Shown: piece by piece, positions 30,705 to 36,508 of the stretch
Position numbering within the stretch: the first letter of the stretch is position 1
Layout of the letters: the number at the start of each line of letters is the position of its first letter
Assembly: GCF_055900595.2 (NCBI RefSeq)
Contig: NZ_CM148325.1
Direction: 5' to 3' (one strand)
Length of the DNA: 64,000 nt
The notes under the pieces: generated by a model
Databases searched by the model: none
What the model was told of the DNA's origin: nothing
Seen by the model: the letters and a program-made list of their open reading frames with translations, nothing else
Made by a program: the position numbers and the translations under genes

Positions 30705-32105
30705 ATGAGCGTTGTGCCTGTAGCCGACGTACTCCAGGGCCGCGTAGCCGTTGACAGCGAAGTCACCGTGCGCGGATGGGTACGTACCCGCCGAGATTCA
30801 AAAGCTGGCATCTCCTTCCTCGCCGTTTATGACGGTTCCTGCTTTGATCCTGTACAGGCTGTCATCAATAATTCTCTGCCCAATTACAATGAAGACGTCT
30901 TGCGTCTGACCACCGGCTGCTCGGTCATTGTGACGGGTAAAGTCGTGGCGTCGCCGGGCCAGGGGCAACAATTTGAAATTCAGGCCAGCAAGGTTGAAGT
31001 TGCTGGTTGGGTTGAAGATCCAGACACTTACCCGATGGCGGCAAAACGCCACAGCATTGAGTATCTGCGTGAAGTCGCTCACCTGCGTCCGCGCACAAAC
31101 CTGATTGGTGCCGTCGCGCGCGTTCGCCATACGCTGGCGCAGGCGCTGCATCGCTTCTTTAACGAGCAGGGATTCTTCTGGGTTTCAACGCCACTGATTA
31201 CTGCGTCTGATACCGAAGGGGCTGGCGAAATGTTCCGCGTTTCTACGCTGGATCTGGAAAACCTGCCGCGTAACGATCAGGGCAAAGTGGATTTCGACAA
31301 AGACTTCTTTGGTAAAGAGTCTTTCCTGACCGTATCTGGCCAGTTGAACGGCGAAACCTACGCTTGCGCATTGTCCAAAATTTATACCTTCGGCCCGACT
31401 TTCCGTGCTGAAAACTCCAACACCAGCCGTCACCTGGCGGAATTCTGGATGCTGGAGCCGGAAGTGGCGTTTGCTAACCTGAACGATATCGCGGGTCTGG
31501 CTGAAGCCATGCTGAAATATGTCTTCAAAGCGGTTCTCGAAGAACGCGCTGACGACATGAAATTCTTCGCTGAACGCGTAGATAAAGATGCCGTTTCACG
31601 TCTGGAACGTTTTATTGAGGCCGACTTCGCTCAGGTGGATTACACCGACGCAGTGACCATTCTCGAAAACTGCGGCAAGAAGTTTGAAAACCCGGTTTAC
31701 TGGGGCGTTGATCTCTCTTCTGAGCATGAACGTTATCTGGCGGAAGAACACTTTAAAGCACCGGTGGTGGTTAAAAACTATCCGAAAGACATTAAAGCGT
31801 TCTATATGCGCCTTAACGAAGACGGTAAAACTGTTGCGGCTATGGATGTTCTGGCTCCGGGCATCGGTGAAATCATTGGTGGTTCTCAGCGTGAAGAGCG
31901 TCTGGACGTGCTGGACGAGCGTATGTTGGAAATGGGCCTGAATAAAGAAGATTACTGGTGGTATCGCGATCTGCGTCGCTACGGTACTGTTCCGCATTCC
32001 GGTTTCGGTCTTGGTTTTGAACGCCTGATTGCTTACGTAACTGGCGTGCAAAACGTGCGTGATGTGATTCCGTTCCCACGTACTCCGCGTAACGCCAGCT
32101 TCTAA
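30705..32105 (+). CDS. asnS: Asparaginyl-tRNA synthetase
   Basis: ATG 30705 [53 protein letters not shown]... (466 aa), class II aaRS. Confidence 0.95.
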
Positions 32106-32120
32106 TTTAGCGTCTTCAAG

Positions 32121-32147
32121 AGCCAGCGCCCGCTGGCTCTTTTTTTA
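32121..32147 (+). terminator. Intrinsic terminator of asnS
   Basis: AGCCAGCGCCCGCTGGCT stem followed by CTTTTTTTAT. Confidence 0.7.
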
Positions 32148-32496
32148 TCCTTTCTGTCAAGTTATCTGTTTGTTAAGTCAAGCAATCTATTTGCAACCCC
32201 GCCATAACGATCATCCTGTTACGGAATATTACACTGCAACATTTGCGCACAAAAAATAATCCGCATTCTTATTGCGGATTAGTTTTTTCTTAGCTGATAG
32301 CACAATTTTCATACTATTTTTTGGCGTTCTGGATGTCTGAACGAGGATTTATTGCCAGGTCGATAAAGTTTCCATCAGAAACAAAATTTCCTTTTAGTTA
32401 ATTTAAATATAAGGAAATCATATAAATAGATAAAAATTGCTGTAAATATCATCATGATTCAATGGAAATATGACGGCGTTCACAAAGTTCCTTAAA

Positions 32497-32560
32497 TTTT
32501 ACTTTTAGTTACATATTTTTTCTTTTTGAAACTAAATCTTTATCTTTGTAGCACTTTCAC
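32497..32560. promoter_or_regulatory. OmpR-binding region (F1-F3 boxes) of the ompF promoter
   Basis: TTTTACTTTTAGTTACATATTTTTTCTTTTTGAAACTAAATCTTTATCTTTGTAGCACTTTCAC, tandem TTTAC/GAAAC-type repeats matching the recalled ompF upstream activator sites; ~150-210 bp upstream of the ompF ATG. Confidence 0.55.
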
Positions 32561-32741
32561 GGTAGCGAAACGTTAGTTTGAATGGAAAGATGCCTGCAGA
32601 CACATAAAGACACCAAACTCTCATCAATAGTTCCGTAAATTTTTATTGACAGAACTTATTGACGGCAGTGGCAGGTGTCATAAAAAAACCATGAGGGTAA
32701 TAAATAATGATGAAGCGCAATATTCTGGCAGTGATCGTCCC

Positions 32742-32750
32742 TGCTCTGTT
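32742..32750. repeat. IS10 target-site duplication, left copy (TGCTCTGTT)
   Basis: 9-bp direct repeat identical to 34080-34088 and immediately flanking the IS10 termini; 9 bp is the IS10/Tn10 TSD length. Confidence 0.85.
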
Positions 32751-32796
32751 CTGATGAATCCCCTAATGATTTTGGTAAAAATCATTAAGTTAAGGT

Positions 32797-32865
32797 GGAT
32801 ACACATCTTGTCATATGATCAAATGGTTTCGCCAAAAATCAATAATCAGACAACAAAATGTGCGA
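32797..32865 (-). ncRNA. IS10 antisense RNA-OUT (pOUT transcript), predicted position
   Basis: Position inferred from established IS10 organisation (RNA-OUT ~69 nt, from about bp 115 outward to bp 47, overlapping the transposase start at bp 108, which here is 32858); not independently verified by folding. Confidence 0.45.
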
Positions 32866-34066
32866 ACTCGATATTTTACACGACTCTCTTTACCAATTCT
32901 GCCCCGAATTACACTTAAAACGACTCAACAGCTTAACGTTGGCTTGCCACGCCTTACTTGACTGTAAAACTCTCACTCTTACCGAACTTGGCCGTAACCT
33001 GCCAACCAAAGCGAGAACAAAACATAACATCAAACGAATCGACCGATTGTTAGGTAATCGTCACCTCCACAAAGAGCGACTCGCTGTATACCGTTGGCAT
33101 GCTAGCTTTATCTGTTCGGGCAATACGATGCCCATTGTACTTGTTGACTGGTCTGATATCCGTGAGCAAAAACGGCTTATGGTATTGCGAGCTTCAGTCG
33201 CACTACACGGTCGTTCTGTTACTCTTTATGAGAAAGCGTTCCCGCTTTCAGAGCAATGTTCAAAGAAAGCTCATGACCAATTTCTAGCCGACCTTGCGAG
33301 CATTCTACCGAGTAACACCACACCGCTCATTGTCAGTGATGCTGGCTTTAAAGTGCCATGGTATAAATCCGTTGAGAAGCTGGGTTGGTACTGGTTAAGT
33401 CGAGTAAGAGGAAAAGTACAATATGCAGACCTAGGAGCGGAAAACTGGAAACCTATCAGCAACTTACATGATATGTCATCTAGTCACTCAAAGACTTTAG
33501 GCTATAAGAGGCTGACTAAAAGCAATCCAATCTCATGCCAAATTCTATTGTATAAATCTCGCTCTAAAGGCCGAAAAAATCAGCGCTCGACACGGACTCA
33601 TTGTCACCACCCGTCACCTAAAATCTACTCAGCGTCGGCAAAGGAGCCATGGATTCTAGCAACTAACTTACCTGTTGAAATTCGAACACCCAAACAACTT
33701 GTTAATATCTATTCGAAGCGAATGCAGATTGAAGAAACCTTCCGAGACTTGAAAAGTCCTGCCTACGGACTAGGCCTACGCCATAGCCGAACGAGCAGCT
33801 CAGAGCGTTTTGATATCATGCTGCTAATCGCCCTGATGCTTCAACTAACATGTTGGCTTGCGGGCGTTCATGCTCAGAAACAAGGTTGGGACAAGCACTT
33901 CCAGGCTAACACAGTCAGAAATCGAAACGTACTCTCAACAGTTCGCTTAGGCATGGAAGTTTTGCGGCATTCTGGCTACACAATAACAAGGGAAGACTCA
34001 CTCGTGGCTGCAACCCTGCTTACTCAAAATCTATTCACACATGGTTACGTTTTGGGGAAATTATGA
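32858..34066 (+). CDS. IS10 transposase
   Basis: 402-aa [84 protein letters not shown]...; ATG at IS10 bp 108 as in canonical IS10. Confidence 0.95.
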
Positions 34067-34079
34067 GGGGATCTCTCAG

Positions 34080-34088
34080 TGCTCTGTT
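34080..34088. repeat. IS10 target-site duplication, right copy (TGCTCTGTT)
   Basis: Identical to 32742-32750; continues in frame into ompF codons [10 protein letters not shown]. Confidence 0.85.
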
Positions 34089-35160
34089 AGTAGCAGGTAC
34101 TGCAAACGCTGCAGAAATTTATAACAAAGATGGCAACAAAGTAGATCTGTACGGTAAAGCTGTCGGTCTGCATTATTTCTCCAAGGGTAACGGTGAAAAC
34201 AGTTACGGTGGCAATGGCGACATGACCTATGCCCGTCTTGGTTTTAAAGGGGAAACTCAAATCAATTCCGATCTGACCGGTTATGGTCAGTGGGAATATA
34301 ACTTCCAGGGTAACAACTCTGAAGGCGCTGACGCTCAAACTGGTAACAAAACCCGTCTGGCATTCGCGGGTCTTAAATACGCTGACGTTGGTTCTTTCGA
34401 TTACGGCCGTAACTACGGTGTGGTTTATGATGCACTGGGTTACACCGATATGCTGCCAGAATTTGGTGGTGACACGGCATACAGCGATGACTTCTTCGTT
34501 GGTCGTGTTGGCGGCGTTGCTACCTATCGTAACTCCAACTTCTTTGGTCTGGTTGATGGCCTGAACTTCGCTGTTCAGTACCTGGGTAAAAACGAGCGTG
34601 ACACTGCACGCCGCTCTAACGGCGACGGTGTTGGCGGTTCTATCAGCTACGAATACGAAGGCTTTGGTATCGTTGGTGCTTATGGCGCCGCTGACCGTAC
34701 CAACCTGCAAGAAGCTCAACCTCTTGGCAACGGTAAAAAAGCTGAACAGTGGGCTACTGGTCTGAAGTATGACGCGAACAACATCTACCTGGCAGCGAAC
34801 TACGGTGAAACCCGTAACGCTACGCCGATCACTAATAAATTTACAAACATCAGCGGCTTCGCCAACAAAACGCAAGATGTTCTGTTAGTTGCGCAATACC
34901 AGTTCGATTTCGGTCTGCGTCCGTCCATCGCTTACACCAAATCTAAAGCGAAAGACGTAGAAGGTATCGGTGATGTTGATCTGGTGAACTACTTTGAAGT
35001 GGGCGCAACCTACTACTTCAACAAAAACATGTCCACCTATGTTGACTACATCATCAACCAGATCGATTCTGACAACAAACTGGGCGTAGGTTCAGACGAC
35101 ACCGTTGCTGTGGGTATCGTTTACCAGTTCTAATAGCACACCTCTTTGTTAAATGCCGAA

Positions 35161-35188
35161 AAAACAGGACTTTGGTCCTGTTTTTTTT
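35161..35188 (+). terminator. Intrinsic terminator of ompF
   Basis: AAAACAGGACTTTGGTCCTGTTTTTTTT: stem CAGGAC/GTCCTG with T8 run. Confidence 0.7.
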
Positions 35189-35317
35189 ATGCCTTCCAGA
35201 GCAATCTCACGTCTTGCAAAAACAGCCTGCGTTTTCATCAGTAATAGTTGGAATTTTGTAAATCTCCCGTTACCCTGATAGCGGACTTCCCTTCTGTAAC
35301 CATAATGGAACCTCGTC

Positions 35318-36508
35318 ATGTTTGAGAACATTACCGCCGCTCCTGCCGACCCGATTCTGGGCCTGGCCGATCTGTTTCGTGCCGATGAACGTCCCGGCAA
35401 AATTAACCTCGGGATTGGTGTCTATAAAGATGAGACGGGCAAAACCCCGGTACTGACCAGCGTGAAAAAGGCTGAACAGTATCTGCTCGAAAATGAAACC
35501 ACCAAAAATTACCTCGGCATTGACGGCATCCCTGAATTTGGTCGCTGCACTCAGGAACTGCTGTTTGGTAAAGGTAGCGCCCTGATCAATGACAAACGTG
35601 CTCGCACGGCACAGACTCCGGGTGGCACTGGCGCACTACGCGTGGCTGCCGATTTCCTGGCAAAAAATACCAGCGTTAAGCGTGTGTGGGTGAGCAACCC
35701 AAGCTGGCCGAACCATAAGAGCGTCTTTAACTCTGCAGGTCTGGAAGTTCGTGAATACGCTTATTATGATGCGGAAAATCACACCCTTGACTTCGATGCA
35801 CTGATTAACAGCCTGAACGAAGCTCAGGCTGGCGACGTAGTGCTGTTCCATGGCTGCTGCCATAACCCAACCGGTATCGACCCTACGCTGGAACAATGGC
35901 AGACACTGGCACAACTTTCCGTTGAGAAAGGCTGGTTACCGCTGTTTGACTTCGCGTACCAGGGGTTTGCCCGTGGTCTGGAAGAAGATGCTGAAGGACT
36001 GCGCGCTTTCGCGGCTATGCATAAAGAGCTGATTGTTGCCAGTTCCTACTCTAAAAACTTTGGCCTGTACAACGAGCGTGTTGGCGCTTGTACTCTGGTT
36101 GCTGCTGACAGTGAGACCGTTGATCGCGCATTCAGCCAAATGAAAGCGGCGATTCGCGCTAACTACTCTAACCCACCAGCACACGGCGCTTCTGTTGTTG
36201 CCACCATCCTGAGCAACGATGCGTTACGTGCGATTTGGGAACAAGAGCTGACTGATATGCGCCAGCGTATTCAGCGTATGCGTCAGTTGTTCGTCAATAC
36301 GCTGCAGGAAAAAGGCGCAAACCGCGACTTCAGCTTTATCATCAAACAGAACGGCATGTTCTCCTTCAGTGGCCTGACAAAAGAACAAGTGCTGCGTCTG
36401 CGCGAAGAGTTTGGCGTGTATGCTGTTGCTTCTGGTCGCGTAAACGTGGCCGGGATGACACCAGATAATATGGCTCCGCTGTGCGAAGCGATTGTGGCAG
36501 TGCTGTAA
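35318..36508 (+). CDS. aspC: Aspartate aminotransferase
   Basis: 396-aa [57 protein letters not shown]...; PLP-lysine context [14 protein letters not shown]. Confidence 0.95.

Follow-up and report, generated by a model that had tools for sequence, protein, structure and literature searches.

The window analysed here is a stretch of 64,000 nucleotides from contig NZ_CM148325.1 (RefSeq assembly GCF_055900595.2). Between positions 32100 and 34500, it carries the end of asnS with its terminator, an asnS-ompF intergenic region of ~600 bp, the ompF ATG (32707), 44 nt of ompF coding sequence, and then IS10 (Table 1). The element is complete (1,329 bp; IS10R/ISVsa5 type; outside end on the left) and is the one IS10 copy within the 64 kb. 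Its imperfect terminal inverted repeats are in place (outside end, CTGATGAATCCCC...; inside end, ...GGGGATCTCTCAG), and the 9-bp target duplication that flanks it, TGCTCTGTT, is exact. The transposase open reading frame (ORF) is intact, lies on the same strand as ompF, and scores 402 bits against the NCBIfam IS4-family model NF033591 (cut-off, 152 bits); its DNA is identical to that of the copy in isolate L002 annotated as WP_001352368.1. The initial annotation had noted Dam sites in the pIN region and at the inside end, and both are present, at IS10 nt 67 to 70 and nt 1320 to 1323. The roles of the two sites, the first of which overlaps the pIN −10, are set out in PMC5006887.

IS10 is inserted after ompF nt 44, and its target is ompF nt 36 to 44 (codons 12 to 15), in the signal-peptide coding region. 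The native ompF frame halts after 15 codons, at a TGA that consists of IS10 nt 2 to 4. Mature OmpF is cut off from its promoter, its ribosome-binding site (RBS), and most of its signal peptide.

Table 1. Features in and around the ompF insertion, in window coordinates.
Feature	Coordinates	Strand	Basis or remark
Terminator-like hairpin, asnS-ompF intergenic region, T-runs on both strands	32257..32281	.	9 pairs, loop of 7
OmpR-binding boxes F1-F2-F3 (−100 to −41)	32498..32557	+	Presumed from K-12 collinearity
ompF core promoter, start near 32598	32563..32598	+	K-12 identity
ompF 5′ untranslated leader, 109 nt, one A less than K-12	32598..32706	+	Alignment
Truncated ompF frame, MMKRNILAVIVPALF*	32707..32754	+	Sequence versus intact OmpF
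Target duplication, left copy, TGCTCTGTT	32742..32750	.	Repeat comparison
IS10	32751..34079	+	Sequence; nt 48-1248 identical to ET12567 copy; excision gives the empty site of the sister genome
IHF-site-like AATCATTAAGTTA	32780..32792	.	IS10 nt 30-42; location presumably as in the IS10 literature
RNA-OUT antisense RNA	32796..32865	−	RF00240; hairpin of −21.3 kcal/mol
Predicted fold-back hairpin, read-in transcripts only	32802..32862	+	32802-32819 pairs with 32845-32862 over transposase RBS and AUG
pIN −10 region, Dam GATC (32817-32820), and inferred RNA-IN 5′ end	32817..32831	+	
Transposase gene, 402 aa	32858..34066	+	ORF; NF033591, 402 bits
pOUT −10-like TAAAAT	32873..32878	−	6 nt upstream of RNA-OUT 5′ end; placed by spacing
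Hybrid ORF, 356 aa	34063..35133	+	ATG in IS10 inside end, overlaps transposase stop (ATGA), in ompF frame
Inside-end Dam site, GATC	34070..34073	.	IS10 nt 1320-1323
Target duplication, right copy, TGCTCTGTT	34080..34088	.	Repeat comparison

Eight complete genomes belong to the same rare lineage, with ~100% identity across the upstream 10.7 kb, and ompF is intact in all eight. In silico excision of IS10 and one copy of the repeat leaves a sequence that matches the sister genome E200086 exactly over 13,751 nt, apart from single-nucleotide polymorphisms (SNPs) at 32533 and 35668. Over the full window, the two are collinear and 99.97% identical (15 mismatches and 2 single-base indels), and IS10 is the sole structural difference. 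Judged by these comparisons, the insertion is a bona fide mobile element, far beyond chance, whose excision gives a known empty site. The sisters carry that empty site, and IS10 would therefore have moved into ompF recently. A 451-nt query that included the first 150 nt of IS10 gave a single match in seven of the eight sisters (two in E500002), so IS10 also appears to be a recent arrival in the strain. The alignments thus describe an insertion that is recent and strain specific.

Upstream of the insertion, positions 32497 to 32706 are collinear with K-12 MG1655, with G>A at 32507, C>T at 32533, and one A fewer in the A-run of the leader. The −35 (TAGCGA, 32563 to 32568), the 17-nt spacer, and the −10 (AAAGAT, 32586 to 32591) are the same as in K-12. 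We take the −35/−10 assignment and the start near 32598 to be transferable from K-12, where the published leader is 110 nt, and the positions of F1 to F3 are likewise assumed to carry over from the established K-12 ompF literature. The A at 32507 (F1) is an allele of the lineage, and the T at 32533 (F2) is private within it. An identical 61-mer with this T is found in 1,973 of 5,283 complete E. coli genomes (37%), and the T reads as a common natural variant, not a lesion; given that frequency, the SNP was rejected as evidence of a compensatory or selected change. The mismatch density against the sister (15 in ~62.7 kb) predicts ~0.05 mismatches in 210 nt, which makes 32533 suggestive at most. 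By alignment, then, the OmpR-regulated ompF promoter is intact, and its three differences from K-12 are all natural alleles. An intact promoter and OmpR region was what the initial annotation had described, and the K-12 collinearity and the identity to the sister (except at 32533) bear it out; the same is true of the spacing of ~45 bp to the IS10 outside end (44 nt of coding sequence after 32706) and of the shared direction of the ompF promoter and the transposase gene (both on the plus strand).

Predicted transcription across IS10

RNA-OUT is intact on the minus strand, where it matches Rfam RF00240 with 97.3 bits (gathering score, 41; E = 3e-20), and its hairpin is strong (z = −3.96). Beyond RNA-OUT, an Rfam search of 31500 to 35500 at E ≤ 1 returned only a chance lncRNA match. 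The published RNA-OUT 3′ end at IS10 nt 47 (PMC5006887) is position 32797 in the window. The RNA-IN 5′ end probably lies near 32831 (IS10 nt 81), a placement that uses the 35-nt overlap between RNA-IN and RNA-OUT. The pOUT −10-like region is identical to that of the ET12567 copy discussed below; spacing gave no convincing candidate for a pOUT −35, and none is claimed. A generic sigma-70 scan left pIN, pOUT, and the ompF promoter all unflagged and is uninformative here, because these promoters are weak in consensus or activator dependent.

The element was compared with the ompF::IS10 copy of ET12567, which we take to be a dam-negative, Tn10-bearing K-12 laboratory strain, and in which IS10 is present at at least 40 places. 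The two copies are identical over nt 48 to 1248, a span that takes in RNA-OUT, both promoters (pIN and pOUT), and the greater part of the transposase gene. They differ at 10 positions, namely nt 24, 25, 27, and 47 at the outside end and six between nt 1249 and 1300; those six are also present in the copies of clinical isolates L002 and L003. Inactivating mutations in pIN and pOUT, both of which the initial annotation had assumed to work, were sought and none was found, as nt 48 to 1248 match the ET12567 copy. Damage to the ompF promoter or to pIN/pOUT was rejected as an explanation: the differences are natural alleles only, and the sequence over nt 48 to 1248 is that of an active copy.

A scan for intrinsic terminators came up empty for the stretch from the ompF start to the transposase gene. 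The OmpR-dependent ompF promoter would transcribe in the sense direction across the IS10 outside end, and the read-in RNA, unlike RNA-IN, would carry IS10 nt ~52 to 69, able to pair with the transposase RBS and AUG. RNA-IN (from ~32831) and the read-in transcript (from ~32598) were folded, and the cost of opening positions −15 to +6 was calculated for each. Upstream of the transposase AUG, RNA-IN is predicted to be open (3.8 to 4.2 kcal/mol); in the read-in transcript, opening the RBS would cost 8.8 to 9.0 kcal/mol. In the latter, within the region around 32840 to 32870, positions 32845 to 32853 pair with 32808 to 32819 (probability, ~0.6 to 0.9), a partner that is absent from RNA-IN. Folded alone, the fold-back hairpin pairs the AUG too, yet it is modest (−12.3 kcal/mol, z = −1.04), and the AUG-proximal pairing partner shifts in long folding contexts; how strong the inhibition is must therefore be judged chiefly from published experiments. 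The folding agrees in direction with published fold-back inhibition and would be insufficient alone to establish the effect.

Sequestration of the IS10 translation signals in read-through transcripts was described by Davis, Simons & Kleckner (1985), as cited in PMC13181058, and the fold-back biology that the initial annotation invoked is in line with both that description and the predicted sequestration of the transposase RBS region. The window resembles the system of Davis, Simons & Kleckner (Cell 43:379) in having an outside promoter that reads in the sense direction across the outside end and, as predicted here by folding, IS10 sequence upstream of RNA-IN that can pair with the transposase RBS/AUG. 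Their promoter was engineered, whereas that of the window is the natural, regulated chromosomal ompF promoter. Read-in transcripts should add little or no transposase.

The initial annotation went further and placed IS10 under osmolarity-responsive input. OmpR-dependent read-in would then make transposition of this copy osmolarity responsive, with high ompF transcription at low osmolarity suppressing transposition and repression at high osmolarity relieving it, by way of fold-back-sequestered transcripts, interference at the outside end, or collision with pOUT. We consider this unlikely. The layout is compatible with it, in that the transcription starts of ompF (~32598) and RNA-OUT (~32865) are convergent, ~270 nt apart, and free of terminators between them, and that read-in transcripts would carry the RNA-OUT target sequence. 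Davis et al. in 1985 are also said to have found that transcription across an IS10 end reduces the activity of that end; PMC13181058 confirms the translational level only. Against this, fold-back protects the element by cancelling input from outside instead of passing it on, and the sequence is indistinguishable in kind from any other sense-orientation insertion. Single-copy IS10, moreover, is not under antisense control (PMC5006887), so titration should be minor. Since fold-back blocks activation from outside and is not an input channel, any osmolarity response of IS10 would probably be small. The read-in property is common to all IS10 insertions that lie in the sense orientation within transcribed genes.

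On the opposite strand, no intrinsic terminator was found from the 3′ end of RNA-OUT to the flanking DNA; the first minus-strand terminator-like site beyond that end is the intergenic hairpin (32281 to 32257), ~150 nt before the asnS stop. Some pOUT transcripts are known to run into flanking DNA (~10% of PlacUV5; Simons 1983, as summarised in PMC9330008). The minor share of pOUT RNA that passes IS10 nt 47 would run antisense to the leader and the 15-codon remnant of the truncated ompF. The initial annotation had pOUT transcribing antisense to the ompF leader toward asnS; the direction holds, and such read-out would probably stop at the hairpin ahead of asnS. A regulatory consequence is hard to see, because the sense target is already disrupted. 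In the known cases of pOUT-driven flank transcription (Simons et al. 1983; acrEF in Salmonella, Olliver et al. 2005; as cited in PMC9330008 and PMC4574204), pOUT/RNA-OUT is likewise intact at the outside end and faces the flanking DNA. In contrast to acrEF-type activation, pOUT in the window points away from the body of ompF and has no gene to activate, and it also differs from pOUT of the inverted ompF insertions (strain 3985 and others), which faces ompF.

Consequences for OmpF

The primary consequence of the insertion, disruption of ompF at a recurrent target, was not emphasised by the initial annotation. The explanation that we favour, and hold as a whole to be likely, is that the main effect is loss, or at least severe reduction, of the OmpF porin and that the cross-talk between the promoter and IS10 is a generic, largely self-neutralised by-product, not an evolved circuit.

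An in-frame hybrid ORF lies downstream (34063 to 35133), so the phenotype may fall short of a complete null. The predicted product of this ORF has an IS10-derived N-terminus and an intact signal-peptidase site, followed by AEIYNK... and the rest of an intact mature OmpF; the counterpart ORF in ET12567 is annotated “porin OmpF” by PGAP. The insertion could on this ground be a hypomorph in which read-through from the ompF promoter or pIN yields a hybrid pre-OmpF from the ATG at 34063, with a GGGG SD-like motif upstream, a reading to which we attach very little probability. Its further part, that the shortened signal peptide still exports and that low-level OmpF stays OmpR dependent, we hold to be every bit as improbable. 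The preserved frame, mature part, and signal-peptidase site are what this reading would need, and the anti-SD duplex of the hybrid (−5.5 kcal/mol) is close to that of native ompF (−6.1 kcal/mol). The hybrid also retains a single positive charge and an uncharged run of 10 residues, and inverted insertions at the same site yield an in-frame hybrid as well. Folding, however, predicts strong structure at the start: opening it would cost 13.3 kcal/mol, against 4.0 kcal/mol for native ompF, and the SD-like motif and the AUG both pair with upstream IS sequence. Translational coupling should be negligible, as the transposase is barely translated, and ~1.2 kb of untranslated RNA would invite Rho termination. 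The frame in both orientations counts as a single 1-in-3 coincidence, because both IS ends (17 and 35 nt) leave a remainder of 2 when divided by 3 and so share a reading phase, and the inverted hybrid is without an SD (+0.9 kcal/mol). Despite an acceptable SD-like motif, efficient translation of the hybrid was rejected, since folding predicts a buried start. Residual functional OmpF is considered unlikely.

Loss or severe reduction of OmpF is of a kind already known: this is an ordinary IS10 insertion, and an identical junction is public in ET12567. IS10/IS10R in major porin genes of resistant isolates has been documented, e.g., in Klebsiella ompK36 (Lev et al. 2017; PMC6340961). In the ompK36 cases, too, IS10 interrupts the coding part of a major general porin gene; here it does so in E. 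coli ompF, within signal-peptide codons. The locus would mark the strain as OmpF deficient or strongly reduced in OmpF relative to its close relatives, which bears on beta-lactam/carbapenem permeability and on phage and colicin sensitivity, and it presents IS10 as a recent arrival in this lineage. With a very strong, regulated host promoter reading into the element, it is also a natural example of the situation against which IS10 fold-back would guard, and the strain may offer a natural and convenient test of it; none of this implies a new mechanism. Annotation pipelines label the hybrid ORF “porin OmpF”, so the disruption may be hidden in automated porin screens.

Recurrence of the target

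ET12567 (NZ_CP045457.1) carries IS10 at the same ompF insertion point, in the same orientation and with the same 9-bp duplication. Its host background differs from that of the window (26 SNPs in the 2.4 kb downstream), as do the IS copies at the 10 positions given above, and the two events are therefore independent. In strain 3985, alignment places an inverted IS10 at the identical insertion point, and strains 613, 571, 774, and EC11 show an inverted IS10 by the same partial-match pattern. Further assemblies were found by exact-sequence look-up of the hybrid proteins. SNPs in the flanks separate five backgrounds with IS10 in the same orientation (the window, L006, L007/L009, L010, and ET12567) and two with IS10 inverted (3985 and L012). 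The flanks thus identify TGCTCTGTT in ompF as a recurrent IS10 target, used across unrelated E. coli backgrounds (at least seven) and in both orientations; as the look-ups were directed at this one site, they give a biased estimate of how dominant a target it is. Among complete genomes, the only other IS10-ompF junction seen was at ompF nt 470 (L002). Metagenomes scanned for the left junction, with IS10 in one orientation or the other, gave no match, probably because assemblies break at IS copies, and none of the papers searched describes IS10 at this ompF site.

Recurrent use of the target might reflect, beyond a preference for the site itself, selection for the ATG and N-terminus supplied by the IS10 end, which would rebuild the signal peptide and create a low-level, newly regulated ompF allele in place of a null. 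In that case, the orientation in the window would be expressed through OmpR-dependent read-through coupled at the ATGA, and the inverted orientation would be driven by pOUT; we regard such selection as highly improbable. An assembly artefact, in which a repeated element was mis-joined into ompF, has practically no chance of being the explanation: IS copies are a classic cause of mis-joins, but the 9-bp duplication is perfect, the IS ends are exact, excision gives the sister sequence exactly, and the same junctions recur in independent assemblies, including the complete ET12567 genome.

Compared with the IS10 target consensus sequences from PMC4574204, the site matches four of six positions of the strict form (NGCTNAGCN) and all four of the relaxed form (NPuCNNNGPyN). 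Six other sites in the region score five of six against the strict form, and 23 sites fit the relaxed form.

The 9-bp ompF sequence TGCTCTGTT (window 32742-32750) was the target of IS10 in the window's orientation in at least five distinguishable backgrounds, and of IS10 in the opposite orientation in two (loci counted: the window plus L001, L003, and L006 to L012). This recurrence occurs despite a match to the strict IS10 target consensus at only 4 of 6 positions; repeated use of the site reflects either a context-dependent hot spot or selection of the site. At L007, one of the counted loci, fimbrial usher and subunit genes lie to the left of the IS10 outside end, in place of asnS and the ompF promoter, which suggests an IS10-mediated inversion or deletion. 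Feature locations are listed in the table.

Features of the disrupted ompF region and of a possibly rearranged locus
Feature	Location	Strand	Description
Hybrid ORF	34063-35133	+	ATG within IS10 inside end, in frame with ompF
Sigma-70-like match	32417-32446	-	TTTACA, 18-nt spacer, TATGAT; 10/12
Hairpin	32257-32281		T-runs on both strands; ~130 nt downstream of the sigma-70-like match on the minus strand
L007	GCA_025049455.1, DAJAZU010000020.1, 1-3004		ompF-side IS10 junction same as window

At the inside end of IS10, the start codon of the hybrid ORF and the stop codon of the transposase gene share bases (ATGA); the predicted product would be a hybrid pre-OmpF of 356 amino acids, running into AEIYNK. 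The hybrid start was predicted to be structured (opening cost, 13.3 kcal/mol, versus 4.0 kcal/mol for native ompF). In E. coli K-12 strain ET12567 (NZ_CP045457.1), the equivalent ORF was labelled “porin OmpF” by PGAP, a label that could mask ompF disruption in automated porin screens.

Compared with the ET12567 copy, the window IS10 differed at nucleotides 24, 25, and 27 (within window 32774-32777), at nucleotide 47 (32797), and at six further positions in the transposase C-terminus (nucleotides 1249-1300; window 33999-34050). Nucleotide 47 is the published 3′ end of the antisense RNA-OUT (PMC5006887). Judged by spacing, it also falls within the putative −35 hexamer of the transposase promoter, pIN.

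Upstream of the insertion, a C-to-T change at 32533 in the ompF promoter (OmpR box F2) was private to the window relative to all eight sister genomes (complete, same lineage, intact ompF) and was one of just 15 mismatches to sister genome E200086 in ~62.7 kb. Across the species, T is frequent at this position (37% of genomes); strain 3985, whose ompF is interrupted by IS10 at the insertion site seen in the window, has it too. In the asnS-ompF intergenic region, the sigma-70-like match and the hairpin could together bound a small divergent transcript; this candidate had no Rfam match.

To the right of IS10 (34080-64000), BLAST against sister genome E200086 gave 6 mismatches and 2 single-base gaps. 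Ungapped comparison of the same block first shifted at ~49188, placed between ycbJ and kdsB by coordinate arithmetic.
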